Positions 11,243-47,510 of a stretch of 62,010 nt of DNA are shown piece after piece (within the stretch, counting starts at the first letter, position 1; each line of letters opens with the position of its first letter). The stretch is taken from the IMG/VR virus record IMGVR_UViG_3300044850_000073, positions 1 through 62,010 of that record. One strand, written 5' to 3'. Made by a program: the position numbers and the translations under genes. The DNA comes from a virus. Lineage: Duplodnaviria; Caudoviricetes. The notes below the pieces were generated by a model. It was not told the DNA's origin. It saw nothing but the letters and a program-made list of their open reading frames with translations, and made no database searches.

Positions 11243-11259
11243 TTAGGCGTGATGCCTGG
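11243..11259 (+). promoter_or_regulatory. GNGAY pentaloop leader hairpin (scaffold)
   Basis: ttaggc-GTGAT-gcctgg, 1 nt before ATG 11261. Confidence 0.7.
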
Positions 11260-11260
11260 T

Positions 11261-11995
11261 ATGTCCGACGAAAATCAACAGGTGCTTGAGACAAGCGCTA
11301 GTGGAAGTGATCAAACTGGTGACGATTCAGATAATCGACGGAACTATTCCGAAGAAGAAGTTCAGAACCTGCTAAAAGCACTCAAATCTGAGCGTGAAGC
11401 ACGTAAAGTATACGAAAAGGAGGTCAAAGAAAAAGCGGCATTACTTGAAAAGTTTGCTGACATTAATCCGAATGAATACCGCCAACTTCAAGAAGAAGTT
11501 GCTGTTGCTGCCCGAGAGAAGGCAGCAGTTGAAGAACGAACTGCATTGCTTGAAGAAAAATACGGCACGCAAGCAGCGGAAGCATCTAAGATGCGTGACA
11601 ATGCAATGCGTGAATTGCTTGAATTCCGTAAACGCTATGCCCTAGAGAAAGTATTTTTCTCTGCAGGCGGCCGGACTGACTCGGCTGATAATGTATCATT
11701 TTTTGATATGCTGGCCAACCAAATTGGTGGTCAGTTTCGCCTAGAAAATGATGGTAGCATTACTGTTATCGATGCTGCAGGTGATCCCGTACTCGACAAG
11801 GAGTCCGGTCGTCGCGTTAATCCAGAGGACTTCTTGGCGCAATACAAAACGCATCCGATCTACGGTACTTTCTTTAAAGGAAACAAAGGATCTGGCGCTG
11901 GTATTGGCTATGGTGGAACTGACGCGAACGGGGTTACGTCCGAAGACCTTCATGGTCTAAGTGTAGACGAACTATTCCAGCGTGCTTTCGGGTAG
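11261..11995 (+). CDS. Head scaffolding protein (start 11261; ORF track start 11219)
   Basis: Acidic N-terminus, coiled coil (ALKSERE), KGSGAG C-terminal motif, directly upstream of major capsid gene. Confidence 0.85.
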   Translation: MSDENQQVLETSASGSDQTGDDSDNRRNYSEEEVQNLLKALKSEREARKVYEKEVKEKAALLEKFADINPNEYRQLQEEVAVAAREKAAVEERTALLEEKYGTQAAEASKMRDNAMRELLEFRKRYALEKVFFSAGGRTDSADNVSFFDMLANQIGGQFRLENDGSITVIDAAGDPVLDKESGRRVNPEDFLAQYKTHPIYGTFFKGNKGSGAGIGYGGTDANGVTSEDLHGLSVDELFQRAFG

Positions 11996-12025
11996 TCCAC
12001 GCGTTATAACGCTTTGACATTTAAC

Positions 12026-12049
12026 ACCGGTCAAATGATCGGTTTTTTT
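12026..12049 (+). terminator. Intrinsic terminator after scaffold gene
   Basis: accggtca-aa-tgatcggt plus T tract. Confidence 0.8.
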
Positions 12050-12078
12050 ATGAAAATTAATATTTTGTATTTTATTTG

Positions 12079-12087
12079 GGTACTCTA
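12079..12087 (+). promoter_or_regulatory. Putative late promoter box GGTACTCTA
   Basis: Motif, inside inverted repeat 12077-12100. Confidence 0.7.
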
Positions 12088-12095
12088 AGGTGAGT

Positions 12096-12167
12096 ACCCA
12101 GCCCTGAGTTGGTTGTGATGACCTATCAGGGAGGGTCTAGCGTTAATGGATGAGACATCCTGAGGCG
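12096..12167 (+). promoter_or_regulatory. Structured major capsid leader with two GNGAY pentaloop hairpins
   Basis: ccctga..ggtt-GTGAT-gacc..tcaggg; cgtt..ggat-GAGAC-atcc..ggcg. Confidence 0.7.
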
Positions 12168-12209
12168 ATTTACCTTTCCTGTCAAAGCACACTTTAACCG
12201 CTTAGGAAC

Positions 12210-13109
12210 ATGGCATTAACTCTGATTGAGGCTAAAAAGCACTCTTCCAACCCTCAAGAGCTGGCAATTATCACCGAACTGGCTGCCGGCCCTCTGCTTC
12301 AAAATCTGCCTTTCCGCGAAGTTCAAGGCAATGGCCTGTTCTGGAAGCGTGAGGAATCCCTCGGCGATGTGGGCTTCCGTACGTTCAACAGTGGCTATGC
12401 CGAGAGCTATGCCACCGTCAAACAGCACAGCGAAGCGCTGAAGCTGTTCGGTGGTGATATCAAGGTCGACCGCGCTATCGTTGACCTGGAGGGTCCCGAA
12501 GCTCGCGCCTATCAAATTCAGGCCAAGACCCGCGCAATGCGCCTGGCTTTCGAGGCTCTGTTCATCAACGGTGACTCGAACACCAGCGGCGCCGAGTTCG
12601 ACGGCCTGGCAAATCGCCTGCCCTCTAGCTCTTCTCAGTATATTGAGAATGCTGCTACCCCCGGCGCACTTGATCTGGGTGCTCTGGATGAGGTTATCGA
12701 TGCAGTGGATGCCCAGGGCGGCCAGAAGTATCTGGTGATGTCGAAGTCTGCCCGTCGTCATCTGAGCAAAGTGGCTCGCGCCTCTTCTCAGATCGATATC
12801 GAGCGCAACGATTTCGGTTATCAGCAACTGTTCTACGGCGGCATCCCCGTCCTGGAGCTTGATCGCGACCATCAGAACGTGGCGATCCTGGATAGCGATC
12901 CGAGTGATCAATCCATCTATGTGGTGGCCTTCGGCAATGATCTGCTGACTGGTCTGCAGAACGGTGGTCCTCAGGTGCGTGACCTGGGTGAAGCGACCGA
13001 TTCGCCGGTGCTTGTGACTCGCGTTGAATGGTATTGCGGGATGGCGCTGATCAACGGTCGTGCCGCTGCTCGCCTTGCGAACGTCGATGCTACGGCTGCT
13101 ATTGCCTGA
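12210..13109 (+). CDS. Major capsid protein (HK97 fold)
   Basis: MALTLIEA..LLQNLPF..GGDIKVD..ALFINGD..EFDGL..RVEWYCGMA pattern; strong codon bias; followed by terminator. Confidence 0.92.
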   Translation: MALTLIEAKKHSSNPQELAIITELAAGPLLQNLPFREVQGNGLFWKREESLGDVGFRTFNSGYAESYATVKQHSEALKLFGGDIKVDRAIVDLEGPEARAYQIQAKTRAMRLAFEALFINGDSNTSGAEFDGLANRLPSSSSQYIENAATPGALDLGALDEVIDAVDAQGGQKYLVMSKSARRHLSKVARASSQIDIERNDFGYQQLFYGGIPVLELDRDHQNVAILDSDPSDQSIYVVAFGNDLLTGLQNGGPQVRDLGEATDSPVLVTRVEWYCGMALINGRAAARLANVDATAAIA

Positions 13110-13126
13110 GTTTAGCTTAGATTATT

Positions 13127-13150
13127 GGCCCCAGAAATGGGGCCTTTTTT
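13127..13150 (+). terminator. Intrinsic terminator after capsid gene
   Basis: ggcccc-agaaat-ggggcc-T6. Confidence 0.9.
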
Positions 13151-13164
13151 ATTGCCTGACACTA

Positions 13165-13173
13165 GGTAAACTA
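13165..13173 (+). promoter_or_regulatory. Putative late promoter box GGTAAACTA
   Basis: Motif upstream of 13194. Confidence 0.75.
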
Positions 13174-13193
13174 ATCTAGTCGAATTACTAGCA

Positions 13194-13523
13194 GTGGTTC
13201 CTGGAAGGTACGACATTAAAATATACCAGCGAGCTACGTTCAAACAGGAAGTCACGCTGCCAATCGACCTGAGTGGACATCAAGTATTCGCCCAAATATG
13301 GGACAGTAAGCGCAGAAATAAAGTCCTAGATATGGAAGTAGAAATGATAGACGAATCTCTTGGCAAGTTCAACTTAATTGTTGATTGGCCGGAAACTACA
13401 CCACTTAAAAAAGCAGCAGAATGGGACTTGATGGTTGAGTATGCAAACGGAGATCGTGATTATTGGCTTGAAGGTTTAGTGACAATTGATCCTGGATTTA
13501 CCGCACCAGAGGACGCAGACTGA
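13194..13523 (+). CDS. BppU N-terminal-like fibre-anchoring structural protein
   Basis: [25 protein letters not shown] pattern; coupled to fibre gene. Confidence 0.6.
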
Positions 13524-16500
13524 TGCCAGATTTAATTGTTGAAATCGTTACTAACGTTGCGGCTGTTGAATTAGGTGCAACCCCAATTGTTGAGACCGTA
13601 ACTGTCGCAACAGTAGGCCCCCAGGGTCCTCAAGGGGCTACTGGCGTAGCCGGCGAGGCCGGCACTGATGGCGCAACTGGAGTTACTGGAGCTACTGGCC
13701 CGATTGGCGCTACTGGCGTTACTGGAGCAACTGGCCCTCAAGGTGATCCTGGTGGTGCAACAGGCGCTACCGGTGCCACTGGGGCTGGCGTAACTGGTGC
13801 TACTGGTGTCCAAGGCGAAGTTGGGGTAACTGGATCGACAGGCCCTACAGGTCCGCAAGGCGCTGATGCATTATGGAATTTTGTTGGCGAATACAATAAT
13901 GGAGCCGACTATTATCCTGGCGATGTTGTAACATTTGCCGGCGGCACTTATTACAGAATTGGTGAACCCAATCCTGGGTATTACCCGACTGATCCTAATT
14001 ATTGGACTGCCGTTGCATTACCGGGTGCTGTCGGAGCTACTGGTGCTGATGGTATCACTGGTGCAACTGGTGCAACTGGTGACGTCGGTATTACCGGCGC
14101 TACTGGTATCGATGGTCCGACAGGTGTCACGGGAGCTTCTGGCGCCACTGGTGTTACTGGCGCCACTGGTGTTGTCGGCCAAAGCGGTCCAACTGGTCCC
14201 AGCGGATTAATTGGTATTACTGGAGCAACTGGTGTCGTTGGCGTAAGTGGTGCAACTGGTGTTGCTGGCGCCACTGGTGTTACTGGCGCAACTGGCGAGA
14301 CTGGTGCAGTTGGCCCTGAACCTTCTTCTACCACATACACAGTTGATCTGGTCTCAACTGTTAATCCGCAAGCTTCCGGTATTACCAGCACCCAGCTACA
14401 GATCACTGGAACTGCCGGCGAATTTCAGTATACATACGAAACCTTAAGTGGCGTAGAAATTACCGGGACTGATGGTGAGTTTTCTTGTAACGCTGTTAGC
14501 GGGGAATTATTGGCCGACTGGACTATGGTTGTCCAGATTGCTGGCACTTTAACGGGTACTGGTTCTATTACCGGTTACACCAGCGGTAAGGTTTACACAG
14601 TTAAGCAAACCAATGGTTCTACAACTTTCCAATTGGTTGAACTGGTTACATCAAGTGGCCTAACGCCAGTTGTTACTACTCCTGGCAGTGTAACTGGCCT
14701 TACCTTTTATCTTGGATACCGTATAGCGCAGCGTCAGCGCCTGTTGATTAGTGGAACGAACTCAGGCACTGGCAGTATTTCCGGTTACAGCAGCGGAACC
14801 CTTTATAAGATTAAAGACACCACGGTAGTCGGACCTACAAATGGTGTCGTTACATTCGCATTGAATGACAATAACGATGTTGGTATCGCAACTACCGCCG
14901 GAACGACAACAGGCCTAGTCTGTTACATGGTGTATGGTAACTATATAAACGGTGATGTCACTGATGTCCAGATGTTTGGCGACTATGGCGCTGGTGATTT
15001 CTATGATATAAATGACCAAGGCGGGCTGTATCCAGGATTTATATTGTATTTCACGTTTAATGGTGTAAATAATTTAAATCAGATTGATTTAAATCTTAAC
15101 TATATAAACACATCAACTCATACTATTTTACTGCAGATTTACGATTTTGCTGCAGGGCAGTGGATCGAAGTAACCAGATATCAAGGTCTTTCTTCTTGGA
15201 CTCAGTTCCAGCCTGGACTTATTTCCGGAACACCGTATATCAACGGTTTAAATGAAACCTATATCAGGCTTTATCACCAATCCTCTGGTGCTAGCAGTCA
15301 TTATTCTTATATTGACTATGTTGCAGTAGTTGATTCTATCTCCGGTGGACAGGGACCCAGAGGTGCTACTGGCCCTCAGGGTGCAACTGGGGTTACTGGG
15401 GTAACTGGCGCTACGGGCATTGCTGGCATTTCTGCTAGCGGTCGTATCTGGTATTTTGCCCAGGCTGCATCTGACATCAGTGGATATGAAACACTGCAGC
15501 CCGACTCTCCAGATAGTGCCCCTCAGGATGACATGACTGCTGTCACCACTAGCTCTAGTGGTGAAGTCTTGATTAATGAATTTGTCACCGAGGTTGGTGA
15601 TCCTGGTATTAATGAGATACCGACCGGTGAGTATGAGATACGCTTCTGGAGCTATGTCTCCAGTAACGACGGAGATACCAGGCTGGTGTTCCGCGTCTAT
15701 ACGCGTGCAACCAACGGTACTGAAACCCCATTGTTCTATTTGAATTCTCCAGAGATTAATGCAACTACCGCCAGTTATTACAGTCAAATACTGGTAAATA
15801 CTCAGGTAAATCCAATCGATCCAACAGATCGGATTGTAACAAAAGTATACGCAAAAACTACTAGTACTAACAATATTACCGCTCATTTTGTTCATTCTGG
15901 TAATACGCCTAGCTCCTGGAAGACTGCTATTACTCTGGGCTATGTCGGTCCTCAGGGCGCAACTGGTGCCACTGGCGTAGAAGGGCCAACTGGCGCAATT
16001 GGCGTTACGGGCGCGACCGGCCCTCAGGGGTTTACTGGGGAGACTGGTCCTACTGGCGCCACGGGGACACAAGGAGCAACTGGCGCAACTGGCGCAACTG
16101 GCGTAACTGGCTCAACGGGTGTTACTGGTGCTACTGGCGTGAGCGGCGTAGGTGGCGCTACAGGAGCCACTGGTGTTAATGGTGTAACGGGTGCTACTGG
16201 TGTTGTTGGCGTCAGTGGCGCTACGGGTGTCGAAGGACCGACTGGCGTTACCGGTGCAACAGGCGTAGGTGGCGCCACTGGCGCGACTGGTGCTGTTGGC
16301 ATATCTGGCGCTACTGGAGTGATCGGCGTCTCTGGTGCAACTGGCGCCACTGGTGTTGGTATTACCGGTGCCACTGGTATCCAAGGAGCCACAGGGATCC
16401 AGGGCGCGACCGGTGCCACCGGAGTTAATGGTATTACCGGCGCTACTGGCGTCAAGGGAGACGCAGGCGATGCTGGCGCTACTGGTGCAACTGGCGTTGG

Positions 16501-17278
16501 CATTACTGGTGCCACTGGTGTAACTGGAGGTCCTGGGACAACTGGTGCTACTGGTGCCACTGGCGTAACAGGAGCTACTGGAGTAGGAACCCCTGGAAGC
16601 GATGGAGCAACTGGGGCAACCGGCGCGACTGGCGCAACTGGAGTTACTGGAGCCACTGGTGTTGACGGTATCACGGGTGCTACTGGTGTTATTGGTGTTT
16701 CTGGCGCGACTGGTGTTACCGGTGCTACTGGTGTTAATGGTGTAACGGGTGCTACTGGTGTTGTTGGTGTTACTGGGGCAACTGGCGTTGCTGGGGCAAC
16801 TGGCGTAACTGGAGCCACCGGAGTAGGGACCCCTGGAATTGACGGAGCGACAGGCGCGACTGGTGTGGTTGGTGTAACTGGCGCGACTGGTGTAACTGGC
16901 GCGACTGGGGTAATTGGCGTATCTGGCGCGACTGGTGTAACAGGACCCGCTGCACCGAAATCAATTACTATTCTGAATCCAACTACATCAGAAAAGGTTC
17001 CACTTTTTTATACAACAACTGGCTTAACTTTTGCTGCTATTCGGTCCTTAGTAGCCGGCACTTCGCCTAGTGTTACCTTTTCCATAAGGCATGGAAGTGA
17101 CTTCAGCGCCGCCGGAACTGAGGTGGTGAATTCTGGTACTACTGTAACGAGCACTACTACAGGCCTTGCGACAACGACATTTAATAATGCTACTGTTTCC
17201 GCAAATAGCTTTGTTTGGCTGACCACATCAGCTACATCAGGAACCGTTGACCAACTTCACGTGTCATTGTTCTTCTAA
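13523..17278 (+). CDS. Collagen-like fibre protein 1
   Basis: Long Gly-X-Thr tracts (GAT/GVT/GPT) separated by globular domains. Confidence 0.9.
15945..16950 (+). repeat. Degenerate 9-nt coding repeats (ggN gcN acN)
   Basis: Encode about 1 kb of near-continuous Gly-X-Y triplets. Confidence 0.9.
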
Positions 17279-19676: not shown

Positions 19677-22600
19677 GTGATCTTATCTTCTTCTGACATT
19701 TATTCTCTGCTGACCAGGGATCCTATTGTTAGCGCGATTGCTGCTGTTAGGATAGTGAAGGACAGACCCGCGCTGGAGGCGGGTAGTGGTGTTCACATTT
19801 ATATTCAAGAATATCCGAATGTCCAGGAATTTACGGCGACCTGGCCGATGTGGATCGTTGATTATGATGAAGAGCCACTGGATGTTGTTTTAAGTCAACT
19901 CAAAAAACTGGTACCAAATTTCCAGATAATAAAAAATGGTGCGTTAATACATGCAAGTACTACTGATCTTAAGATAGACAAAACAGAAGTTAAGCCTATA
20001 GAGAAGCAACCAGAAATATCGACTGCTGATATAGAAGCAAAATTCAAAGACCTACAGCAATCAATAGAAGACCGAATGCTGCTAGTGGGCCCCGGTCGCC
20101 CCGGCAGAGATGGTGCAAGAGGTATCCCTGGTAAGGATGGGCGCGATGGTGTCGATGGCAAGGATCTACAGGCCACTGATGTTGAACTCGGTGATCTAAA
20201 AGATGTCTTCGTTTCTGATGCCAAAAATCGTCAATTTTTAATGTATGACGGATCATCTTGGATCCCAAGTTTTGTACCGCAAATAATAAAAGCAGGAACA
20301 GGTGGTGGAAATGGTAGCAATATAGACGCCGACATGGTTCGGCAGATATGTGGTATTGACCAAACTGGCGAGCCGATGGGTCACGCCAATAAATTGGATA
20401 GCACGATTACGTTTAATAATATCACTAGAACTTTTACTATAGCTCCTGTAGCGTCAAGTTTTGATGTATGGGTCAGGGGAATTAAATTTACATATACGCA
20501 AGCGCAAAGTATACAGATTCCGGATGTATCTGACCTGTATTATATCTTTTTTGATTCTAATGGAGACATTGGCTATCAGACATCGTTCTTTGTTTGGGAT
20601 AGTCAGGCATTTACTTCTTACATTTACTGGAATGCATCTGAAGGGGTCGCAACATATTTTGGCGATGAGCGACATGGTATTGTTCTTGACTGGCAGACTC
20701 ACGAATACTTGCACAGAACACGCGGAGCATCGCTTGCTAGTGGTTTCGGCATCCAGAATTACACTGTAATTGGTGATGGATCACTTGATACCCATGCTCA
20801 GATTGATATTTTAAATGGCACTTTCTTTGACGAAGATCAGCAGATTGATATTACACATTCCGAAACTCCGACGCCTCAGACATGGGAGCAGCACTTGATT
20901 GGCCCAGCCAAAATACCTGCTTCATATCATACAAATAACGGATGGACTGTTAATACAGCCAATAATTTTCCAATTAAGACCGTTTCCGGTCAGCCTGTTT
21001 ATAACTTAAATACCTCTGGTTCGTGGAGTCTTGTCAATGTAGATGAGAATAAGTATTTCCATGTTTTTATTGTTGCTACGCATAATCTTGGAAATCCTGT
21101 TATTTCTGTATTAGGTCAACGGCAAGATACAAACATCGGCAATGCTCGTAGTTATACCTGGAGCGACCTAGATTTACAAGATTTCCCTTCACTTGAATTC
21201 AGGCCACTTTATCATCTGATTTATCAACATGGTGTGTATGGCAATAGCGTTAATGCTAGATTGCGAGAAGTTGTTGACATCAGATATTCCGCTATTGGTG
21301 CATTTGCATCAGGATTGGTTGGTGAAATTGGCGCGACTGGTGCTACTGGTGTCCAAGGTGACGTAGGCGCTACTGGTCCGAAAGGTGACACTGGTGACAT
21401 TGGAGCTACCGGCCCTCAAGGTGATGCATTTGACTTGAACTATCAAGGTGCATGGAATAGTGCAACCGCTTATGTCGCTTATCAAAGCGTGAGTTATGAT
21501 AACAGTATTTGGATATCTACCAGATCTACTACAAATGAACAACCTGGCACTAATGATGCATGGGTCACTATTGCAGCGCAAGGAGCACAGGGAGCAACTG
21601 GTCCGCAGGGCCCAATTGGCTTTGATGGTGCCACTGGTCCGCAAGGTGTTGGAGAGATTGGAGCAACTGGCGCTGTTGGTCCCGTTGGTGAACAGGGCCC
21701 CCAGGGACCGGCTGGTGCAGATGGACAAGACGGAACTCAGGGGCCTCCTGGTCCCAATATTACATTCCAAGGTTCTGTAGCTAATGTCGCCGATTTACCA
21801 TCTGGTGCCAATGTAAGTGATGCTTATACGGTTATCAACGAAGGATACGCTATTTTTATCTGGAACGGTTCCGCTTGGGTTGATGGCGGTCCTCTTCAAG
21901 GTCCGCAAGGAATACAAGGTCCCGCTGGCCCGCTGGGCCCGCAAGGCCCCGCTGGGGCTACTGGTGCCACAGGTGCTGCAGGCCCCCAAGGCAACGTTGG
22001 CCCCGCTGGAGGAAGCTTCCTGTCTGCCAGACTGTCTGCGACTATAAATTCAAGTGTGACAACATGCACTGTTGCCGCGACACAGGAGTGGCCATTAATA
22101 CCAGCTAACGTCGCTCAGTATCGGATATTAATAGATAATGAAATAATGAATGTCACAGCAACATCTGGGACATATGGCAGTCTGCAATTAACGATAACAA
22201 GAGCACAACTCGGAACTACTGCCGCTACTCATAATAAGAATGGTCTGGTATATCTTCGACAGATTATACCACTGCCTGGTGCAACCGGCATTCAGGGTGC
22301 AACCGGTGTGGGTGTTACCGGCGCTACTGGCCCTCAAGGCGCAACTGGTGCAGGCGTCACAGGCGCTACTGGCCCTCAAGGCGCCACTGGTGTTGGCCTG
22401 TCTACCGGCTTACAGGTACTGCTGGACGACATAAGTCCCGGTTTCGATAGTGCAGAAGTCTCATTTCCATTAACTTATGCAACCACAGCTATACAACCAG
22501 CAGAAGTTCAAAATCTTCTTGTTGTACTAGATGGCAATGTACTTGAACCCATCCAGGACTACACAGTTAGTGGTAGTACTATAACTTTTGCTATAGCACC

Positions 22601-23414
22601 AAGTGGAACATCCGAAGCATTCTTAATAGTCAATTCGTACAGACCAGCACCTGTCGGTATTAGTGACCTTGCTGATGTTTCAGCAAGTGGCTCTGCGATA
22701 CAAGGGCAAGCATTGGTCTGGAATGGCTTTGCGTGGGCTCCTGGGTCTGTAGCTGGTAGCGGTCAGCGTCGGATACTTGATACCCTGGTCTTTCCGCCTG
22801 GTGGCAATCCAAATCCTCCTTTTAACCTCATGATAGGCGGACAACTGTATACACCAGTAAGTGATTTGTACCTTGATGTATATAAAAACAAAGTAAAGCA
22901 AATACCTGGAATCGACTATACTGTTAATTCATATCAGATTATCTTTACTGATCCGATTTCTCCCTCGGAAATTGTGATCATTGCCACTGAAGCAGCTTCT
23001 GGGTCTGGTCTTGGCATGGATCCGGATAAAATAAGACGACACGACTATGTTGCACCATATAGTTACACGGGTACGGCAAACGAAGGAACATTAGAAAGTG
23101 ATCCAGACTGGGTGCTTACCCGTATACAAGTACTGGAGAATGGTGACGCGGTGAACTATTATGCAATTGGCAGTTGGACTAACAGGAGTAGTGCCGATTA
23201 TACCCTGCAGCCATTACTAGCACCACTACCAAAGGCAGCTAGAAGATTCTCGTTTGAAGGTAATTACAGTTATGCCGGTACCAATAATTATGGCAGTGAT
23301 CCAACTTTAGCAAACTGGCAACTAACCAGAATTGAAACATTAGCAAATGGTGAAGCTGTCACGCTCACGGCGACCGATAGTTGGTATAATAGGATTGCCG
23401 CCTCCTATAGCTAA
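19677..23414 (+). CDS. Collagen-like multidomain fibre protein 2
   Basis: Several Gly-X-Y tracts, two DYTV fibre-type repeats, duplicated ~57-aa C-terminal module. Confidence 0.85.
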
Positions 23415-26482: not shown

Positions 26483-26578
26483 ATGGCACTGCCACTGATT
26501 ATCGCCAAGCAGATTGGTGGCAAGAAGTCAACTAAAAAAGGCGGCAAATCAAAACCCAAGGGATCCGGTAAGCGCTAA
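26483..26578 (+). CDS. 31-aa Lys/Gly-rich microprotein (not in ORF track)
   Basis: MALPLIIAKQIGGKKSTKKGGKSKPKGSGKR; late box upstream; TAATG overlap with next gene. Confidence 0.7.
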   Translation: MALPLIIAKQIGGKKSTKKGGKSKPKGSGKR

Positions 26579-26874
26579 TGGCCGCCAAAAAACGCAGCAC
26601 TGCTGAATTCTATGCCAACAATCCGGAGGCATATAAAAAGAAGCTGGCCTACGACAAAAAGCTCAATGCCAGACCAGATCGAAAGAATTATCGCGCTGAA
26701 TTGGCGCGTGAACGCCGTGCTCGCGGGATCATGGGCAAAGGAGGGCCAGACGTCAGTCATACATCTGATGGCAAGTTCAAGCTAGAAAATCCTAAGACGA
26801 ATCGTGCCAGAAATGGGCATGGCGACAACAAACGCCTTGCTCCTGGTAAAGGTACTAAGAAGTCAAAACGCTAG
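26578..26874 (+). CDS. Basic protein with HNH-like remnant
   Basis: Lys/Arg-rich; DVSH...NRARNG pattern. Confidence 0.7.
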   Translation: MAAKKRSTAEFYANNPEAYKKKLAYDKKLNARPDRKNYRAELARERRARGIMGKGGPDVSHTSDGKFKLENPKTNRARNGHGDNKRLAPGKGTKKSKR

Positions 26875-26880
26875 TAGCTA

Positions 26881-27045: not shown

Positions 27046-27070
27046 TATATTCGCTATTTGGAAATAGCTA

Positions 27071-34276: not shown

Positions 34277-34301
34277 GACCCAGTCCATGGGTCTTTTTTT
34301 T
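34275..34301 (+). terminator. Intrinsic terminator
   Basis: aagaccca-gtcca-tgggtctt plus T tract. Confidence 0.85.
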
Positions 34302-34332
34302 GCTATGCTTATTGCGAGTCCCAATTCGCTCC

Positions 34333-35148
34333 ATGACGGCAGTTAAAGACGGTATAACGACTTGGTATAACTATGCTGGTCGGTACCGTGTTTTGGATCA
34401 ATACGAATTTGATGTATTGATCAAGCAAATGAAGCAGCATGAGCCAGGAACAAAGGAATATACAGATATTCTAAATAAGCTGACGATGCATAACTTAAAA
34501 TTAGTCATCAAGTTTGTTTCTAACTTTGTTAGAGCAAATGTTCAAAACAAGATGGGTACTATGGATATGCTTGACTATCTTCAGGTCGGGACTATCGGTT
34601 TGCGTCGCGCCATTGAATGCTATGATCCTGCAAAAGGTTACAAGTTTTCCACCTATGCAGTACCCTGGATAAGGTCTCTTGTCTCAAGGTATAACTTAAA
34701 AGTTTCTAGTGTTTTTCACATTACTGAAAACGCTCTTCTTGATGCATGGCAATACAAGACTTACGGTGAGATCAGAAGCAAATCTTCAAAAAATAAAACG
34801 GCCGAAGAATGCGTCGATCTGGTAAAAAGGATACAGGCGATGCAAAACCCGATAAGTGTGGATGCCGATGTTTGCGGACCCGGCGAAACAGAAGGCACAG
34901 AGCTGGTCAAACGCCTTGAAAGTCACTACAAGATGTATGACAGCAGTCTGGATTTCAATATGGAAATGGAAGACCTGGTAAACTCTGCTGGTCTCACTAA
35001 AATGCAGATAAAAATTATTAAAGCGTCATTTATCCAAGAGTTGACGACGCATCAGATAAAAGAACTGTATGGCATTAGCGTGCCCGAGATTAAGAGATCA
35101 AAACAAAAAGCCTTGGCTAAGCTCAAAGACGCTCTTAGTCAGTTATAA
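34333..35148 (+). CDS. RNA polymerase sigma-70 family factor (RpoD-like)
   Basis: HNLKLV..DYLQVGTIGLRRAIECYDPAKGYKFSTYAVPWIR; region 4 KQKALAKLK. Confidence 0.92.
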   Translation: MTAVKDGITTWYNYAGRYRVLDQYEFDVLIKQMKQHEPGTKEYTDILNKLTMHNLKLVIKFVSNFVRANVQNKMGTMDMLDYLQVGTIGLRRAIECYDPAKGYKFSTYAVPWIRSLVSRYNLKVSSVFHITENALLDAWQYKTYGEIRSKSSKNKTAEECVDLVKRIQAMQNPISVDADVCGPGETEGTELVKRLESHYKMYDSSLDFNMEMEDLVNSAGLTKMQIKIIKASFIQELTTHQIKELYGISVPEIKRSKQKALAKLKDALSQL

Positions 35149-35584: not shown

Positions 35585-36031
35585 ATGGAATCTTTCAATT
35601 TTACCGACTTACCGCCTGGCGCGTACATGGATGAATTGCCGTTACTCACGACGGCTCATATCAAGCCTTATATTGTTGCTATATTATTGCATCGAGGAGC
35701 GGTCAGGGACTTTGAGATTATCAATAGCTTGACTCCTCATTGCCAAACAAGTGATTTGAAAATCGGTGGTTGGGATCCCTTGGAGGAAGAATGGTGTGAA
35801 GGCACTCGCCTAGAGAAGCTTATAGATGAAGCTTTGGGCGAATTCGTAGCGGAGGGCGTACTGCGTTACAATGAATCCAGAAATCTATGGGTTTTAACCG
35901 CTAACGACATATCGGTTGTGATTTCATGGGTAGCTTCTCTTGGAGCAAAGATACCACAACATTTACTGTTAGAATTATCTAGGGAACAATTAATTCGCAT
36001 CCCAAATTATATTCCTTTGGACCATGAGTAA
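35585..36031 (+). CDS. Hypothetical protein
   Basis: 148 aa ORF in operon. Confidence 0.65.
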   Translation: MESFNFTDLPPGAYMDELPLLTTAHIKPYIVAILLHRGAVRDFEIINSLTPHCQTSDLKIGGWDPLEEEWCEGTRLEKLIDEALGEFVAEGVLRYNESRNLWVLTANDISVVISWVASLGAKIPQHLLLELSREQLIRIPNYIPLDHE

Positions 36032-36251
36032 AAAGACAGTAACTGAAAGCATGAGATTGCAGCAACCTGCATTTCCTATGCCAAGATACAGGAGAGGAAC
36101 TCCTGTACAGGTTTACATGGGAGCTGGGTGGTCCGCAGGATCTGTTGTCGAAAGTTTTCAAGATAAGTGCTCAGTTAGACTTAATTTTGGCAACAAGTTA
36201 ATTACAGTGTTTGATGCAAGATCAATTCGTTCAACCGAGGAGAACAAGTGA
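36024..36251 (+). CDS. Hypothetical protein (small beta-barrel-like)
   Basis: Overlap-coupled ORF. Confidence 0.6.
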   Translation: MSKKTVTESMRLQQPAFPMPRYRRGTPVQVYMGAGWSAGSVVESFQDKCSVRLNFGNKLITVFDARSIRSTEENK

Positions 36252-38791: not shown

Positions 38792-38800
38792 GGAATAATA
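38792..38800 (+). promoter_or_regulatory. Putative late promoter box GGAATAATA
   Basis: Variant motif upstream of terS. Confidence 0.6.
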
Positions 38801-38808: not shown

Positions 38809-38823
38809 TTAGCGAGATGCTGG
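38809..38823 (+). promoter_or_regulatory. GNGAY pentaloop leader hairpin (terS)
   Basis: ttagc-GAGAT-gctgg, 2 nt before in-frame GTG 38826. Confidence 0.6.
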
Positions 38824-39452
38824 TAGTGTCGTCATCAGAGTGGAAAGAAGCAAAGCCTTGCAAGCGTGAATCTGGGCCTATCTATAAATTCAGAAGAGGC
38901 TACAGCTTAGGCGACACTGGTCGACATGAAACTGCCGACCAGTATGTTTGTTTTCAGAAGTATTTAATGCTACAGGGGTCGAGATCTACGGGGGCGCTAT
39001 GTGAGCTTACTGGTCATAGTTTTAAAACGATCTCAGATTGGAGTAATGCTTTCAATTGGCAGAATCGTGCAGCCGCTTATGACAAGGATCAGATGGCAAT
39101 AGTTTGGAAGGAAGTCGAAAAGTATAATCGCAATACTCACAAGGATGCGATTATCGAATTTCGTGAATCGTCAGAACGTCAAGCCAGGATGATGGCCAAA
39201 GTAGCCGAGGATCTTCTTAGGGTGCTTGGGAAGAGAGTCATGAAAGCAGAAGAAGAGGGGGAGGAAGTCCCAATGACTCTAGTCTCTGGTTTGCTCCGTG
39301 CTACCGCTAGTATCAGTGAGCAATCTAGGCAGTCATGGGCAAATGCGTTGGGCGTCAATGAAATGCTGGAAATGGTTGAAACAGAAATGAATAGAGCAGA
39401 AGTCGCAGATGTGACTGATGTAGACGCTTATGAAATTCCAGTTGAGGAATGA
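38817..39452 (+). CDS. terS: Terminase small subunit (start may be GTG 38826)
   Basis: N-terminal HTH (WSNAFNWQNRAAAYD), helical body; upstream of terL. Confidence 0.7.
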   Translation: MLVVSSSEWKEAKPCKRESGPIYKFRRGYSLGDTGRHETADQYVCFQKYLMLQGSRSTGALCELTGHSFKTISDWSNAFNWQNRAAAYDKDQMAIVWKEVEKYNRNTHKDAIIEFRESSERQARMMAKVAEDLLRVLGKRVMKAEEEGEEVPMTLVSGLLRATASISEQSRQSWANALGVNEMLEMVETEMNRAEVADVTDVDAYEIPVEE

Positions 39453-39453: not shown

Positions 39454-39657
39454 ATGGATACCGATTTCCCTCTGAATGTCATAGAAAATGAGGACGGTTC
39501 ACTAACTATCGAATGGGACGAAAATCATCCTAGAACCTCAATGTTTAACAACTTTACAGAACAAGATTTCTTGCGTTTACTACAAGATGAGTGCTTGCGT
39601 ATCCTGGGACAGCAAGAATATGATAGAATAAAACAACAACAACATACTGAAGATTGA
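39454..39657 (+). CDS. Hypothetical protein
   Basis: VIENEDGSLTIEWD motif; coupled to terL. Confidence 0.6.
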   Translation: MDTDFPLNVIENEDGSLTIEWDENHPRTSMFNNFTEQDFLRLLQDECLRILGQQEYDRIKQQQHTED

Positions 39658-41177
39658 TGGCGACAAGAGTCGGTAAAAATTTTCTGGAACGAGCCGGCTC
39701 TGACAGGGAAATGGTGCGTGCGCTTAGGCGCATTAAGACGCAAAAGAAAGAAGACGGCCAACAAGTAATACTGCATCAGTTTATCAGAAAAGTTGCCCCA
39801 AATTATAAGTTTTATAAAGTTCATGCGGAATTAACAAAGCAGCTACAAAGAGTAATTGATGGGAAATGTAAAAGATTGATCATACAAGTACCTCCTCGCA
39901 GTGGAAAGTCTTATATCTCATCAAAGCTGCTGCCCGCTGCTTATTTGATGGCACATCCTGATCGCTATGTAGGAATTGTCTCCTATAGCGCCGAGCTGGC
40001 TGAAGGCTTTTCAAGGTCAGCTCGTGAGTACTACCAACAAGCAGGGGGGATAATGGATCCTGTAAAGAAAGCCGTTAACGATTGGGGTACGCAGGGCGGC
40101 GGCGGATTATGGGCGGCGGGTGTCGGTGGCGCCATAACCGGTCGATCTGGTCATCTTTTGATCGTAGATGACCCGGTCAAGAATAGGGAAGACGCTGACA
40201 GTCCAAGAGTCATGGAAAAACTTTGGGACTGGTATACGTCGACTTTGTACACAAGACTTGAGCCAAATGTAGGATCAATTGTCGTCATCCAGACGAGGTG
40301 GAGCGAAAATGATCTTATTGGACGATTAATTGAATCTGAGATGAACGTCTCGGAAAAAGGCAGAGAAAATTGGACCATACTGGATCTTCCTGCAATTTCT
40401 GAAGATCCAAATTCCAGGCCGCCATTGCCAGCGCATTGTGAAGTAGTTCCTGACTGGAGAGAAGAACCAGGATTGGCTTTATGTCCGCAAAGATATGGCA
40501 TCGAAGAATATGAGCGTATTCGCGAAGCAATTGGCACACGAGATTTTGCTGCATTATTTCAACAAAGACCAGCTCCGGAAGGTGGCAATATGTTTGATCC
40601 GAGCTGGTGGCAGTATTATGATGCTGCTACTGTTCTTCCTGAATTCCAGCGTGTAATGCTAAGTGTAGACTGTACATTTACCAATGCAGGGACAAGCGAT
40701 TATGTAGTTGGTACTGTGATTGGCCAATCTGGTGTTAACTATTACGTCCTAGATATGGCTAGAGAGCGTCTCGATATCATGGGGACAATTGCAATGATAT
40801 CTAGGATGCACAATAGGCACGCTTTAAGCGGAACAATTATTGAATTAGCGGCTTCGGGCTATGCCGCTTACCAGATGTTAAGCAAAAAGATACCTGGACT
40901 AATTGGATTTAAACCAGAGAAATCAAAAGTAGCAAGAGCAGCCGGTATTGTCCCAGTCGTTGAAGCTGGCAATGTATTTATACCGGCAAGTGCAAGCTGG
41001 CTTGATATATTCATAAATGAGTTCAGCCTGTTTCCGGCCGCCAAAAACGATGATATCATTGATTCTGTATCCATGGCTATCAATTACATGTCTCAGAGGT
41101 CTGCTCCTGCGTTAACTGAAGTCATGTGGGGGCGTGGCATCACGCTGCCTGATTCTTACCGTTTACGTACTGACTAA
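39657..41177 (+). CDS. terL: Terminase large subunit
   Basis: Walker A PPRSGKS; Walker B LIVDDP; QTRW; nuclease SVD...NDDIID. Confidence 0.95.
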   Translation: MATRVGKNFLERAGSDREMVRALRRIKTQKKEDGQQVILHQFIRKVAPNYKFYKVHAELTKQLQRVIDGKCKRLIIQVPPRSGKSYISSKLLPAAYLMAHPDRYVGIVSYSAELAEGFSRSAREYYQQAGGIMDPVKKAVNDWGTQGGGGLWAAGVGGAITGRSGHLLIVDDPVKNREDADSPRVMEKLWDWYTSTLYTRLEPNVGSIVVIQTRWSENDLIGRLIESEMNVSEKGRENWTILDLPAISEDPNSRPPLPAHCEVVPDWREEPGLALCPQRYGIEEYERIREAIGTRDFAALFQQRPAPEGGNMFDPSWWQYYDAATVLPEFQRVMLSVDCTFTNAGTSDYVVGTVIGQSGVNYYVLDMARERLDIMGTIAMISRMHNRHALSGTIIELAASGYAAYQMLSKKIPGLIGFKPEKSKVARAAGIVPVVEAGNVFIPASASWLDIFINEFSLFPAAKNDDIIDSVSMAINYMSQRSAPALTEVMWGRGITLPDSYRLRTD

Positions 41178-41178
41178 A

Positions 41179-41808
41179 ATGGCCAGAAAGTCTCTTGATT
41201 TCAAGTTGTCTCCTGAGCAGCAAAAAATGGCCATGGAAAATATTAATTTAGCCAGGCGAGAGGCGTGGCGAATTCAAAGAACAACTGGCATAGAATATTC
41301 CGTCTTAGAAGGTGCAGCATTCCTTGGCTTGTGCAAAGCTTGTAATCGCTATGATCCAAGCTCCGGATATAAATTTTCTAGCTTAGCTACGCCAACTATA
41401 AGAGGTGAATTACTGCATTGGGTAAGAGATAGGACTTACGCAATGCGTTTATCGCATAAAATGAGAGAAAATTGGATTAAAGGACGCCGATTAATGTATG
41501 ATGGCTCCACTGACATCCAGATAGCTAAAGCCTTGGGTCTTTCTCTTGGCGATTGGCAGGAAGTGAGATCGGCCTGTTCGGGCCCACCACTTGAGTTAAA
41601 AGATCAAGCCATGCCTTCGGCTCCGTTAGAGCCAGAGGAGTTTGATTTTAAAAATGACTACAGAGATAAAGCGACTGAGATTATCGAAGCGATATCCGAG
41701 AAAGAGCGAGACATCTTGATGAATTATTACAAAGGTGACGTATCAAAGGCGCCCGTAAGACAGTTTAACTTAACATTAAGCTTTCTCAAATTTAAAGAAA
41801 TCCTTTAA
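41179..41808 (+). CDS. Group 3 (SigF/SigB-like) sigma factor
   Basis: GLCKACNRYDPSSGYKFSSLATPTIRGELLHWVRD; region 3 IAKALGLS. Confidence 0.9.
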   Translation: MARKSLDFKLSPEQQKMAMENINLARREAWRIQRTTGIEYSVLEGAAFLGLCKACNRYDPSSGYKFSSLATPTIRGELLHWVRDRTYAMRLSHKMRENWIKGRRLMYDGSTDIQIAKALGLSLGDWQEVRSACSGPPLELKDQAMPSAPLEPEEFDFKNDYRDKATEIIEAISEKERDILMNYYKGDVSKAPVRQFNLTLSFLKFKEIL

Positions 41809-41863
41809 GCCAGAGACTGGGTTCCATCAGGCCCTAGAATCTCTTGGACAAGGAGGATGGCAC

Positions 41864-43677: not shown

Positions 43678-43680
43678 TCA

Positions 43681-44363: not shown

Positions 44364-46682
44364 ATGTCCGAATTTCGACCAACCGCCCCATCGGCTCCTG
44401 CTGTTTTCTATCGTTCTTACAGCCGTCGCAAGCCAGATGGCTCTAGAGAAAATTATCAGGAGGCAGTGTCCAGAACTATTGCTGCTATTGCTGAAGTTGG
44501 TCAGTTCAATGAGCAACAGAAGAGCCTTGTGATGGATATGGCCCTAAAGCAGCATTGCTTGCCAAGCGGTCGTGCATTATGGGTAGCTGGTACAGAGTGG
44601 TCCAAAAAGCCGGAGAATTTTCCCGGTTACTACAATTGCTGCTCTATGCATGTAGACGACCCATCGATGTTTGGTCTACTTATGGAGCTAGCAATGATGG
44701 GTACCGGTACCGGCGGTGTACTGGAGTCAGATGTAGTCAGTAATCTGCCTAAGATTGTCAGGGCTGTTAACATCGTTGGTGTAGTTGAAAACCATCAAAC
44801 AAAAGGTGGACTGCCGGATACCGAAATCGCATTGGACAAAGAAGATAATGTTATCTATTTAGTAGTAGGCGATTCTCGTCAGGGGTGGGCTAGTGCTTAC
44901 TGCGGCCTGATTCAGCTTGCGATGGGCACTAGAGCCCTAGGGGAAACTGAAGATACTGAAGCGTGTGACGCCAGAATTGTACTGGACCTGAGTGAGGTAC
45001 GCCAAGCCGGCGAACTGCTTAAAGGTTTCGGCGGTACGGCGAATCCTGTTCGGCTGCAGGAGACCTTTGAGAGGGCCGCCAAGCTGCTGTCAAAGGCAAA
45101 AGGACGTAAACTGACTTCCGTTGAATGTTGTCTATTGATTGACGAAGCAGCTAGTGCGGTTGTGGCTGGTAATATCCGCCGCAGTGCCGGCATGCGCCAA
45201 TTTTCGTCTGATGATGAAGATGCTGCCTCAGCCAAAGATGGCTTGTACAAACAGGATGAAGACGGCAACTGGAGCGTAGATCCAGAGAAGGAAGCACTCA
45301 GGATGGCCAACCACACCCGTTGTTTCCATACTAAACCTGATTACGAAACAATCAAAGCTAGTATTCAAAAGCAATTCTGGTCTGGTGAGGGTGCAGTCAT
45401 GTATGTACCCGAATCGATCGCCAGGGCAAATGCTGATCTGCTGAATACAGAGGAATTAAAGCAGCGGTTCTTGGGTTTGTATGTACGCAATCAGGATGAT
45501 GCACGGCAGATGCTGGTAGAGCTGGCAGAAAAAGCCGGCGAACCGGCTGATGAGCGTATCATTCAGCATCGGATGGATCGGTATGGGCTTAACCCCTGCG
45601 GAGAGATAATCATGCGGGACAATTTATGTAATCTTTCAGAGATTCATCTGAACACACTAGATCCGGCCAACCAGGAACTACAGCATCAGGCATTCTATGC
45701 CGGCGGCTTGCAAGTTGCTGCACTGCTTCAACATAAATTTGTCCCCGAACGCCTGGCTTATAGTCGTGAAAATGATCCAATTGTTGGTGTCAGTTTTACT
45801 GGCCTGTTTGACTTTTTTGTACATGCTTTCGGTGCTTCCTGGTTAGAATGGATGATGAAAGGTCGTCCAACTGGTGCTGAATACAAAAAGTATGACACAA
45901 AGGAGAAGAAATTTCTAAAATCATGGCGTCTTAGCGCCGAGCAAGGTGTTAAGGATTACTGTACAGAGCACGGACTGCGTCTTCCTTCCAGGTTTACCAC
46001 TGTCCAGCCTGCTGGTTCTAAGAGCTTGCTGACAGGGGCATCATCCGGTTGGCATCCACCGAAAGCACAACGCTTCATCCGTCGAATCACCTTTGGCGTT
46101 AATGATCCTTTGGTTAGCGCCCTTAGGGATTACGGATATAACGTGATTCCTGCTCAAAGCGCAAGAGATGAGCAGGGTAACCTGCTCGATGATATCACTG
46201 ATTCCAGGGTTCGTGAAGTACTGGTCGAAATTCCCACGGAAGTTTCGTGGGCAAATATACCTGGCTGTGATGAATTCGACCTGAGTAAACTGCCAGTGTC
46301 CGCCCAATGGGGACTGTATATGCAAGTACAAAATCATTATACTACTCACAACACCTCGGCAACCCTAGAGTTTCGTGAAAACGAGATCGACCAACTGGCC
46401 GATTTAATGCACGATAATATCAATGCTAATGGCGGCTACATTTCGGCCGCGCTGTTAGCCAGATTTGATGCGAACGAGACGTTCCCTAGATTGCCGTTTG
46501 AGCCCATTGATAAGCAAACTTTTGAGCGACGCAATGCTGTTTGCAATGTTCTCAGAAATTTACTTCCCAAAGAAACGACCATTTTAGATCTTTTGAATAA
46601 ATATGATAGCCCTGATTATGAATTGAAGGGAGCTGCTGGTTGCGATTCTGATAAATGTTTATCAGAAGAAAAACGGAACTAA
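44364..46682 (+). CDS. nrdJ: Class II (cobalamin-dependent, monomeric RTPR-type) ribonucleotide reductase
   Basis: PSGRALW; YNC; VAGNIRRSA; NPCGEI..CNL; TTVQPAGSKS; C-terminal CDSDKC. Confidence 0.95.
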   Translation: MSEFRPTAPSAPAVFYRSYSRRKPDGSRENYQEAVSRTIAAIAEVGQFNEQQKSLVMDMALKQHCLPSGRALWVAGTEWSKKPENFPGYYNCCSMHVDDPSMFGLLMELAMMGTGTGGVLESDVVSNLPKIVRAVNIVGVVENHQTKGGLPDTEIALDKEDNVIYLVVGDSRQGWASAYCGLIQLAMGTRALGETEDTEACDARIVLDLSEVRQAGELLKGFGGTANPVRLQETFERAAKLLSKAKGRKLTSVECCLLIDEAASAVVAGNIRRSAGMRQFSSDDEDAASAKDGLYKQDEDGNWSVDPEKEALRMANHTRCFHTKPDYETIKASIQKQFWSGEGAVMYVPESIARANADLLNTEELKQRFLGLYVRNQDDARQMLVELAEKAGEPADERIIQHRMDRYGLNPCGEIIMRDNLCNLSEIHLNTLDPANQELQHQAFYAGGLQVAALLQHKFVPERLAYSRENDPIVGVSFTGLFDFFVHAFGASWLEWMMKGRPTGAEYKKYDTKEKKFLKSWRLSAEQGVKDYCTEHGLRLPSRFTTVQPAGSKSLLTGASSGWHPPKAQRFIRRITFGVNDPLVSALRDYGYNVIPAQSARDEQGNLLDDITDSRVREVLVEIPTEVSWANIPGCDEFDLSKLPVSAQWGLYMQVQNHYTTHNTSATLEFRENEIDQLADLMHDNINANGGYISAALLARFDANETFPRLPFEPIDKQTFERRNAVCNVLRNLLPKETTILDLLNKYDSPDYELKGAAGCDSDKCLSEEKRN

Positions 46683-46691
46683 TTATTACTA

Positions 46692-46957
46692 TGGCAGTTT
46701 CTCGTCGACACCAGAATCATGACCATTATGGTCCTGGTGTCAAGACAGCCTTGTCTGCATTTGTTGATGCCTTTAATTCTTATGCAATTATTACAGGCAC
46801 AACCATGAAATACAGTTCTTTTCGCCTCGATCCCGTTCAAGATTGTTGGGATTTGCTTGTCCAAGAACGGAAGAAAGAGACTGGCACCGGTTTTTACTTA
46901 ACTCCACAGGAATACGAAAATGTCAACATTAGTGGATCATCAAATCGAAAAGTTTAA
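46692..46957 (+). CDS. Hypothetical protein
   Basis: Fills the gap between nrdJ and dcd. Confidence 0.5.
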
Positions 46958-47444
46958 TCGTTTTCACAGGGAACTGATTAGACCGTTTAACCCATCTCAA
47001 GTTAATCCAGCATCTTATGATGTTAGGCTAGCTAAAGATCTGCTTATTGAATCACCTTGTGGTAAATGGCTTAAGGCTACTACTCCTTATATGATGGAGC
47101 CTGGCGAATTTTTACTTGGTGTAACGCAAGAGAAATTTAGACTTCCCTCAAACATTGAAGCAATCTTTATGTTAAAATCGTCAAGAGGTAGGGAAGGTTA
47201 CGAACATGTCTTGAGCGGATATATCGATCCAGGCTATACTGGAAATATCACCCTAGAGCTGGTTAATGTTAACAGATTTCGAAAACTTCCACTAGAAGAA
47301 GGAATGCTAATCGGTCAAATCAGATTTATGTTTACTGATTCAAATTCATCTAGACCATACGACAAGACTGGTCACTACCAGAACGATACAACTGTCAAGC
47401 CATCAATGGTTGATATTTTTGGTAGATCTATGACATCCCATTGA
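46920..47444 (+). CDS. dcd: dCTP deaminase
   Basis: NPASYDVRL..KSSRGREG..IDPGYTGNITLEL..IGQ. Confidence 0.93.
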   Translation: MSTLVDHQIEKFNRFHRELIRPFNPSQVNPASYDVRLAKDLLIESPCGKWLKATTPYMMEPGEFLLGVTQEKFRLPSNIEAIFMLKSSRGREGYEHVLSGYIDPGYTGNITLELVNVNRFRKLPLEEGMLIGQIRFMFTDSNSSRPYDKTGHYQNDTTVKPSMVDIFGRSMTSH

Positions 47445-47457
47445 TGGATAGCTACTT

Positions 47458-47466
47458 GGAAGACTA
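47458..47466 (+). promoter_or_regulatory. Putative late promoter box GGAAGACTA
   Basis: Motif upstream of portal. Confidence 0.75.
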
Positions 47467-47475
47467 AGTATGCCA

Positions 47476-47510
47476 TTGGCGTGACGCCGGCAGTCCCTAG
47501 GCGCGATGCC
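47476..47510 (+). promoter_or_regulatory. Two GNGAY pentaloop leader hairpins (portal)
   Basis: ttggc-GTGAC-gccgg; ggc-GCGAT-gcc, 2 nt before ATG 47513. Confidence 0.7.

Follow-up and report, generated by a model that had tools for sequence, protein, structure and literature searches.

Hairpins bound by the coat proteins of MS2/R17 and PP7, and the control exerted by RegA and gp32 in T4, are examples of phage translational operators. The nut sites of lambda and P22 carry boxB hairpins, with loops GAAAA or GAAGA in lambda and GACAA in P22, which are read by the arginine-rich motif of the N protein, and CsrA/RsmA hairpins carry GGA in the loop. In P22, the scaffolding gene is under autogenous post-transcriptional control, for which, to our knowledge, no operator motif has been defined. 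Except in a handful of model phages, little has been established on how tailed phages balance the amounts of scaffold, capsid, portal, and terminase. Here, we describe a family of short hairpins with a GNGAY loop in the 62,010-base sequence IMGVR_UViG_3300044850_000073 (the window, analyzed over its full length), which is the whole genome of a cyanosiphovirus akin to the Synechococcus phages S-CBS2 and S-CRES1-3 and, more distantly, to the Prochlorococcus phage P-SS2. The hairpins stand in the leaders of the genes for the scaffolding protein, the major capsid protein, the small terminase (terS), and the portal protein. They are almost certainly a real conserved cis-element of the head-gene messages, and we see about an even chance that they are operators of a shared trans-acting reader controlling translation or stability.

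Hairpins in the head-gene leaders

The six hairpins proposed in a first-pass annotation of this DNA are all present, exact in letters and coordinates, and its names for the four genes agree with PHROGs; a seventh hairpin (S2), which it did not contain, lies inside the scaffold gene (Table 1). The plus strand contains 32, 17, 8, and 4 stem-GNGAY-stem sequences with stems of at least 3, 4, 5, and 6 bp, respectively (10, 3, 3, and 1 on the minus strand). Dinucleotide shuffles lead to an expectation of 26.3, 10.2, 3.8, and 1.5, and the observed counts were reached by 14%, 1.3%, 3%, and 5% of 300 shuffles. The genome-wide rate predicts 0.24 hairpins for the 456 nt of the four head leaders, where 6 are found, with a Poisson probability of 2e-7 that is post hoc for the window; the same test was then repeated in three genomes outside those that gave rise to the hairpin idea, with 5 hairpins against 0.26 in S-CBS2, 5 against 0.20 in S-CRES3, and 4 against 0.22 in P-SS2. 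The genome scan recommended in the first-pass annotation thus gives a strong enrichment in head leaders but only a modest excess genome-wide, and it is the placement of the hairpins, rather than their number, that is far from chance.

A scan of the 110 nt before every open reading frame (ORF) start, with one stem mismatch allowed, added three weak sites (3395, 41810, and 50529). We take the hairpin at 3395-3409 (tatgt-GCGAT-atgtg) as chance, as it lacks the promoter-like box described below and is not conserved in S-CBS2 or S-CRES3, and the weak hairpin at 41810-41820 was rejected on the same grounds (no box and no conservation). Matches in coding regions (378, 7805, 17374, 22857, 44915, 46472, 50529, 52019, and 58954) are not preceded by a correctly spaced box, and they agree with the shuffle expectation. 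The fiber genes at 13523-17278 and 19677-23414 contain long 9-nt coding repeats (ACT GGY GCN, collagen-like Gly-X-Thr), and the dozens of NACTG pentaloop "hairpins" that head the count of all pentaloops were discarded as such collagen-like coding repeats and not RNA structures.

Conservation in related phages

A census of leaders with both box and hairpin returned the scaffold, capsid, and terS genes in S-CBS2 (its portal hairpins were seen separately), terS, portal, scaffold, and capsid in S-CRES3, and scaffold and capsid in P-SS2, where terS has two hairpins and one extra site precedes gp085. The proposal of a candidate RNA regulon of head and packaging genes is partly supported: a strand-specific conserved motif limited to head and packaging leaders is found in the window, S-CBS2, S-CRES3, and P-SS2.

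The motif is also widespread among relatives in IMG/VR. We examined 82 scaffold loci, 10 of which were not evaluable, and found a GNGAN hairpin no more than 45 nt upstream of the start in 70 of the other 72. Every one of 80 capsid loci has at least one hairpin, and both are present in 70 of them when the loop is GNGAY and in 78 when it is GNGAN. The portal leader carries at least two hairpins in 62 of 76 evaluable loci, one in 2, and none in 12. Hairpins are mostly paired or tripled per message. The intragenic scaffold hairpin (GNGAN, stem of 4 bp or more, between +17 and +40) is found in 29 of 46 distinct scaffold genes, and since it is kept while its stems and the encoded residues (e.g., LETS or SEME) differ between genes, selection seems to act at the RNA level inside the coding region.

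Farther away, the motif is absent from Microcystis phage Mwe-JY26, Paenibacillus phage Unity, Caulobacter phage CcrColossus, and Roseobacter phage DSS3P8, with capsid identities of 36 to 39%. In Mwe-JY26, CcrColossus, and DSS3P8, GC-rich hairpins with G-rich loops of the GGGG type, which may be due to chance, stand before the capsid gene and the gene just upstream.

Loop consensus and covariation

Among 210 distinct leader hairpins, loop position 2 is T in 92, A in 79, C in 39, and G in none, while position 5 is T in 107, C in 64, A in 22, and G in 17. Given the lack of G at position 2 and the prevalence of pyrimidines at position 5, we write the motif as G-H-G-A-Y. The loops comprise GTGAT (52), GAGAT (37), GAGAC (25), GTGAC (23), GCGAT (18), GCGAC (16), and minor GNGAR forms. 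The G at position 3 was set by the search pattern, which nevertheless fits 70 of the 72 scaffold sites and all 80 capsid leaders, so GNAA loops are essentially unused. Stems of 3 to 9 bp are free in sequence. The first four loop bases fit G-N-R-A, the known GNRA tetraloop pattern, with R always G, and a fifth base follows. In an RNAalifold alternative for the 35 capsid leaders, G1 pairs with Y5 (GC in 15, GU in 13, unpaired in 7), and the sequence alone does not decide between a pentaloop and a triloop.

In the alignment of those 35 leaders, with a structure of 14 pairs, 93.6% of the cells are paired compared to 76.6% in shuffles and 30 to 47% with slid partners; double changes occur in 89 cells against 29.9 in shuffles, and none of 500 shuffles reached the pairing or the double-change value. 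At the scaffold site, 46 distinct sequences, taken only with at least three pairs beside the loop (a filter that 2 of 72 loci failed), are 88.4% paired compared to 63.5%, with a covariation score of 0.663 compared to 0.187, again reached in 0 of 500 shuffles. The claim of stem covariation around a fixed loop is thus borne out across homologous sites in relatives, but the six hairpins within one genome from which it had been drawn are not strict covariation.

The capsid leader RNA

The leader of the capsid gene forms a larger structure of about 100 nt, in which a basal helix (ACCC/GGGU) encloses HP1 and is followed by HP2 and a CACC/ACC-pyrimidine tract. A model built from 35 capsid-leader sequences (R1) has one match each in the window, S-CBS2, and S-CRES3, none elsewhere in 314 kb, and one strong match in each of the 80 IMG/VR capsid loci (34 of them in the seed). 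The P-SS2 capsid leader was missed by R1 at E values up to 1, and its two hairpins are visible by eye. The leader, as captured by R1, is a well-supported candidate for a new structured RNA family.

A central GGGUG can pair, in 33 of the 35 leaders, either with the upstream ACCC, enclosing HP1, or with the downstream CACCY-pyrimidine segment, enclosing HP2, and the two helices are mutually exclusive. They are similar in energy (-14.8 and -16.7 kcal/mol on average; z of -1.75 and -1.9 relative to shuffled partners), and the minimum-energy fold of the window leader has the downstream helix. The capsid leader may be an RNA switch. Sequestering of the Shine-Dalgarno region by the pyrimidine tract was rejected, as this pairing is no better than in shuffles (mean z of -0.15; only 3 of 33 sequences are equaled by no more than 5 of 100 shuffles).

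Promoter-like boxes and start codons

A promoter-like box, GGnAnnCTA, occurs in about 20 plus-strand intergenic leaders between 1604 and 54211, ahead of genes of all classes, and lies 20 to 30 nt before many plus-strand genes (neck, tail, fiber region, lysin, RusA, ribonucleotide reductase [RNR], and head). We take this box to resemble the -10 elements of group 3 sigma factors. Together with the two phage sigma factors, the boxes look, in sequence, like a phage-specific promoter class, and the first of these factors is a possible reader of them. Only four of the approximately 20 box-bearing leaders, those of the scaffold, major capsid, terS, and portal genes, have a GNGAY hairpin behind the box, and no such hairpin was found in the box-bearing neck, tail, fiber, lysin, RusA, and RNR leaders of the window. 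The first-pass annotation was therefore right to place the hairpins behind a promoter box and to report them missing from the tail, fiber, and lysis leaders; they are absent from all other box-bearing leaders. The capsid leader differs from the rest in that its hairpin is nested within a longer stem instead of following the box at 8 to 9 nt. The scaffold and capsid units have the same organization, i.e., promoter box, hairpin leader, one gene, and intrinsic terminator. The spacer between box and hairpin, compared by eye in relatives, has a conserved CGC(A/C)C at the predicted start and nothing like the boxA consensus.

At three of the four genes, the hairpin abuts or overlaps the start codon, as operators of the RNA-phage type do, and the distances of 1 to 2 nt that had been claimed for three hairpins were recovered at the scaffold (1 nt), the portal (2 nt), and terS (2 nt, if it starts at GTG 38826). 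The listed terS start lies inside the hairpin and the in-frame GTG three codons on, 2 nt past it; this GTG is conserved in one close relative, and the true start may be either ATG 38817 or GTG 38826. The capsid gene is the exception, its hairpins lying 50 to 100 nt before the gene. In the scaffold message, the start codon is located in a gap of about 20 nt that separates two hairpins; further in-frame starts are TTG 11219, GTG 11249, and ATG 11252. In relatives, the scaffold hairpin ends 1 to 10 nt and the proximal portal hairpin 1 to 4 nt from the start. Shine-Dalgarno sequences are rare in this phage (by a loose test, they precede 24 of 93 ORF starts). Although GUGAU can pair with part of the 3' tail of 16S rRNA, the hairpin was rejected as a Shine-Dalgarno substitute, since loop positions 2 and 5 vary, the capsid copies are 50 to 100 nt upstream, and the phage makes little use of Shine-Dalgarno sequences.

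Probable shared control of the head genes and its alternatives

A thymidylate synthase gene precedes terS, and RNR and dCTP deaminase genes precede the portal gene, so the head genes are scattered among DNA-metabolism genes, at distances of up to 36 kb from each other. Judging from the sequence comparisons, these scattered head-building genes probably share one control, and a shared post-transcriptional control is the most economical reading. The fixed loop, free stems, paired sites, closeness to the start codon, and restriction to head genes argue for operators. Every head message would begin at its own GGnAnnCTA-type promoter, with the first hairpin forming almost at the predicted 5' end, within a few nucleotides of it. 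A common trans-acting reader, most likely a phage or host protein, would then bind the single or paired hairpins beside the start codon and, once bound, jointly control the procapsid and packaging genes through the access of ribosomes and perhaps through the lifetime of the mRNAs. Paired and tripled hairpins are what would be expected for a multimeric reader. We infer the action as RNA, the existence of the reader, and the direction of its effect (repression or activation) from this arrangement.

Several observations weigh against this picture. Minimum-energy folding of the scaffold, terS, and portal leaders does not select the hairpins (z of about 0), so that the support for them is comparative, not thermodynamic, and the scaffold alignment, as said, had been filtered for pairing. 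The mRNA 5' ends are predicted from the promoter-like box. The motif is also not uniform in its targets: terS shows it least often, in 8 of 20 distinct IMG/VR leaders; the portal leader of P-SS2 has no hairpin; and the 12 portal loci without one include all six evaluable loci at 37 to 38% portal identity. In P-SS2, a box and a tgc-GTGAT-gca hairpin (72524-72534) overlap the annotated start of gp085 (annotated as a DNA-directed RNA polymerase), which would be a target beyond the four head genes. As for the reader, Pfam scans of 20 window proteins returned no RNA-binding domain, only sigma, single-stranded DNA-binding protein, glutaredoxin, and weak matches, and the small conserved proteins described below are leads only, with nothing tying the one of 75 amino acids to the hairpins. 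Finally, a GNRA-like cap could act for folding stability alone.

This last point leads to a serious rival, although we hold it to be somewhat unlikely, in which no reader exists and the hairpins are fast-folding, stable 5' caps against 5'-end-dependent decay and insulators of an unstructured start window. The short distance between the first hairpin and the predicted 5' end, the monocistronic scaffold and capsid units with a terminator hairpin at the 3' end, the scaffold start codon in a single-stranded gap between two hairpins, the match of G-N-G-A to the GNRA pattern, and a translation that is largely Shine-Dalgarno independent all fit such a role. Stability leaves unexplained, however, the invariant G at position 3, the exclusion of G from position 2 (0 of 210), and the preference for a pyrimidine at position 5, and the motif marks the low-copy portal and terS messages yet not the leader of the abundant tail tube (box at 4931) or other late leaders; single-sequence energies are, moreover, unremarkable. 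If a reader does exist, free scaffolding protein repressing all head messages, an autogenous control akin to that reported for P22, is a special case of the operator reading that we regard as quite unlikely. The scaffold message has the tightest layout, with two hairpins around the start codon, and conservation is highest at the scaffold and capsid sites (70 of 72 and 80 of 80), but nothing in the analysis points to free scaffold as the binder, its visible N terminus (MSDENQQ..) is acidic (by eye rather than by computed composition), and distant phages with the same capsid family (36 to 39% identity, judged on the capsid only) are without the motif.

Other explanations move the hairpins away from translation. 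Promoter-proximal position, near-fixed spacing, a pentaloop that recalls the GNRA-like loops of boxB, and a transcription remodeled by two phage sigma factors would suit nut- or put-like elements, where the hairpins of the emerging transcript make RNA polymerase read through terminators, by themselves or by way of a factor loaded onto it. This is very unlikely, as the scaffold and capsid units have their own box and are each closed by a strong intrinsic terminator just ahead of the following promoter, antitermination needs no start-codon-proximal or intragenic copies, and the spacer, by eye, lacks a boxA-like element and has only the conserved CGC close to the predicted start. Endoribonuclease sites for trimming or inactivation of the head-gene messages are highly improbable: a fixed loop on free stems in a 5' leader would be appropriate, and the S-CRES3 homolog of the minus-strand ORF 29453-29911 is annotated as an RNase III endonuclease, but stems of 3 to 6 bp are short for RNase III, and the annotation itself seems doubtful, as Pfam finds no RNase III domain in this ORF and its N terminus looks hydrophobic and membrane-like. 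A signal at the DNA level, either a non-template strand that folds in the transcription bubble and recruits a factor or an inverted repeat that binds a protein, is barely credible. Free stems around a fixed center are the reverse of what a duplex-DNA operator would show, hairpins of up to 19 to 23 nt and a capsid basal helix spanning about 40 nt exceed the transcription bubble, and copies lie 25 to 100 nt from the promoter and also inside a coding region; against this stand the fixed spacing to the promoter box and the precedent of the RfaH/ops non-template hairpin (PMC5995543).

Returning to the shared reader, a more specific and, in our view, unlikely form of it would have the paired G-H-G-A-Y hairpins dock a head-assembly protein or a small conserved phage protein, so that the progress of procapsid assembly would govern how scaffold, capsid, portal, and terminase are translated, with the reader of the capsid leader choosing between its two helices. 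If true, this would amount to an assembly-sensing translational regulon in a double-stranded DNA phage, and the capsid leader would be a protein-operated RNA switch. A conserved RNA tag of 11 to 19 nt can in any case be used as bait for a reader and mutated in reporters, and it can be searched for in viromes, where it would mark head-gene starts in unannotated cyanophage contigs. The lineage includes isolates on marine Synechococcus and Prochlorococcus (S-CBS2, S-CRES1-3, and P-SS2) and many uncultured relatives, so the productivity of abundant viruses of the ocean may depend in part on this control.

Candidate readers

A tblastn comparison of the window ORFs with S-CBS2, S-CRES3, and P-SS2 yielded four proteins of unknown function present in all four genomes (36024-36251, 35585-36031, 49280-49642, and 29453-29911). 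The first of them (75 amino acids) has 3 relatives by word-based search and 39 by full HMMER search, some as repeats in 1000-amino-acid proteins; the Atlas places it near SH3/Tudor-like clusters, with a subthreshold likeness (0.89) to a picocyanobacterial hyper-conserved protein cluster, and its S-CRES3 counterpart is annotated as an SPT5-like elongation factor. We take its sequence to follow a KOW/SH3-like pattern. The region 26483-27265 codes for four very basic small ORFs (31, 98, 54, and 64 amino acids) with no Pfam family and no link to the hairpins; the one of 98 amino acids is conserved in S-CBS2 and S-CRES3 and not in P-SS2.

Genomic context

The coordinates of the hairpins, boxes, genes, and terminators are collected in Table 1. 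Apart from these, the stretch at 3296-3426, "intergenic" before the ORF at 3427-3900, seems, by eye on the DNA, to encode a peptide conserved in S-CBS2 and S-CRES3, and this ORF may begin further upstream, or there may be a shifted-frame product as in tail assembly chaperones.

Table 1. Hairpins, promoter-like boxes, genes, and terminators of the head-gene units and their surroundings in the window
Feature	Position	Strand	Remarks
Hairpin S1, ttaggc-GTGAT-gcctgg	11243..11259	+	Ends 1 nt before scaffold ATG 11261
Hairpin S2, ggtgctt-GAGAC-aagcgct	11281..11299	+	Within scaffold codons 8-13
Hairpin HP1 (capsid leader), ggtt-GTGAT-gacc	12111..12123	+	Extends through CCCTGA/TCAGGG
Hairpin HP2 (capsid leader), ggat-GAGAC-atcc	12148..12160	+	
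terS hairpin, ttagc-GAGAT-gctgg	38809..38823	+	Contains ATG 38817
Portal leader hairpin 1, ttggc-GTGAC-gccgg	47476..47490	+	
Portal leader hairpin 2, ggc-GCGAT-gcc	47500..47510	+	Ends 2 nt before ATG 47513
Structured capsid-gene leader RNA	12085..12180	+	Model R1, 72.9 bits
Box GGCATACTA, ahead of scaffold	11225..11233	+	9 nt before S1; same box and spacing in relatives' scaffold leaders
Box GGTACTCTA, ahead of capsid leader	12079..12087	+	
Box GGAATAATA, ahead of terS	38792..38800	+	8 nt before hairpin
Box GGAAGACTA, ahead of portal	47458..47466	+	9 nt before first hairpin
Scaffolding protein gene	11261..11995 (alternative start 11219)	+	PHROGs; ATG 11261 fits relatives' MSxE N termini
Intrinsic terminator closing scaffold unit	12026..12050	+	
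Major capsid protein (major head protein) gene	12210..13109	+	phrog_212, 1e-74
Intrinsic terminator closing capsid unit	13127..13152	+	
Small terminase gene terS	38817..39452	+	PHROGs
67-codon ORF after terS	39454-39657	+	
terL	39654-41177	+	PHROGs
Portal protein gene	47513..49021	+	phrog_145, 2e-81
Phage sigma factor, regions 2 and 4	34300..35148	+	Context, outside hairpin motif
Second phage sigma factor, directly after terL	41134..41808	+	Context only

Comparison with known systems

The comparison with Rfam phage motifs that had been suggested gave no match. At gathering thresholds, Rfam release 15 returned from the whole window only three tRNA genes (56162-57588, minus strand), and the capsid leader (11990-12215), searched at E values up to 10, had only chance-level matches far below gathering scores. 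We found no description of a GNGAY head-gene hairpin in the published literature, the supplementary tables of PMC10690425 not being covered. In PMC2784084, on the P-SS2 genome, two sigma factors, promoters, and terminators are mentioned, the counterpart of our second sigma factor is termed group 3, and the words stem-loop and hairpin do not occur. The predicted viral structured RNAs of PMC10690425 (IMG/VR) include candidates upstream of capsid and terminase genes, which are, like ours, computed cis-regulatory RNAs in viral contigs; unlike here, its text names no cyanosiphovirus motif or pentaloop, and its supplements may or may not include the capsid leader.

The likeness to lambda boxB seen in the first-pass annotation is a resemblance only. 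Both are short hairpins with a free stem, a five-base loop starting with G, and a possible GNRA-like fold, both are promoter proximal in the transcript, and boxB copies, several per genome, are read by one small protein. The loop consensus differs, however, being G-H-G-A-Y instead of purine-rich GAAAA/GAAGA or GACAA, and, in contrast to nut sites, the hairpins lie beside or inside start regions and in monocistronic units with terminators, with no N-like protein identified. We rejected a nut site on the failing loop consensus and because the scaffold and capsid units end in terminators followed by a new promoter box. CsrA/RsmA targets are likewise short hairpins whose loop core is fixed, with multiple copies in many leaders and the last near the ribosome-binding site, but a CsrA/RsmA site was rejected because GGA is excluded by the lack of G at loop position 2 in all 210 distinct hairpins. 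The ops element of RfaH, a 12-nt non-template element, was also rejected, given hairpins of 11 to 23 nt, one of them nested in a helix spanning about 40 nt, and a sequence unlike the ops consensus.

The operators of RNA phages and T4 are similar in that the gene under control has a hairpin on or next to its start codon and several messages can have one reader. In those systems, the repressor is a structural or phage protein, whereas the reader of the cyanophage hairpins is only postulated, and the loop here differs in sequence and size from that of the RNA phages, in a double-stranded DNA phage with four dispersed targets. The proposed likeness to P22 is in the post-transcriptional control of head-assembly synthesis with the scaffold message at its center; the difference is that here a motif is defined and that it is also found on capsid, portal, and terS. 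The hairpins are a real, uncataloged family of cis-elements that marks the head-gene messages of S-CBS2- and P-SS2-like cyanophages.

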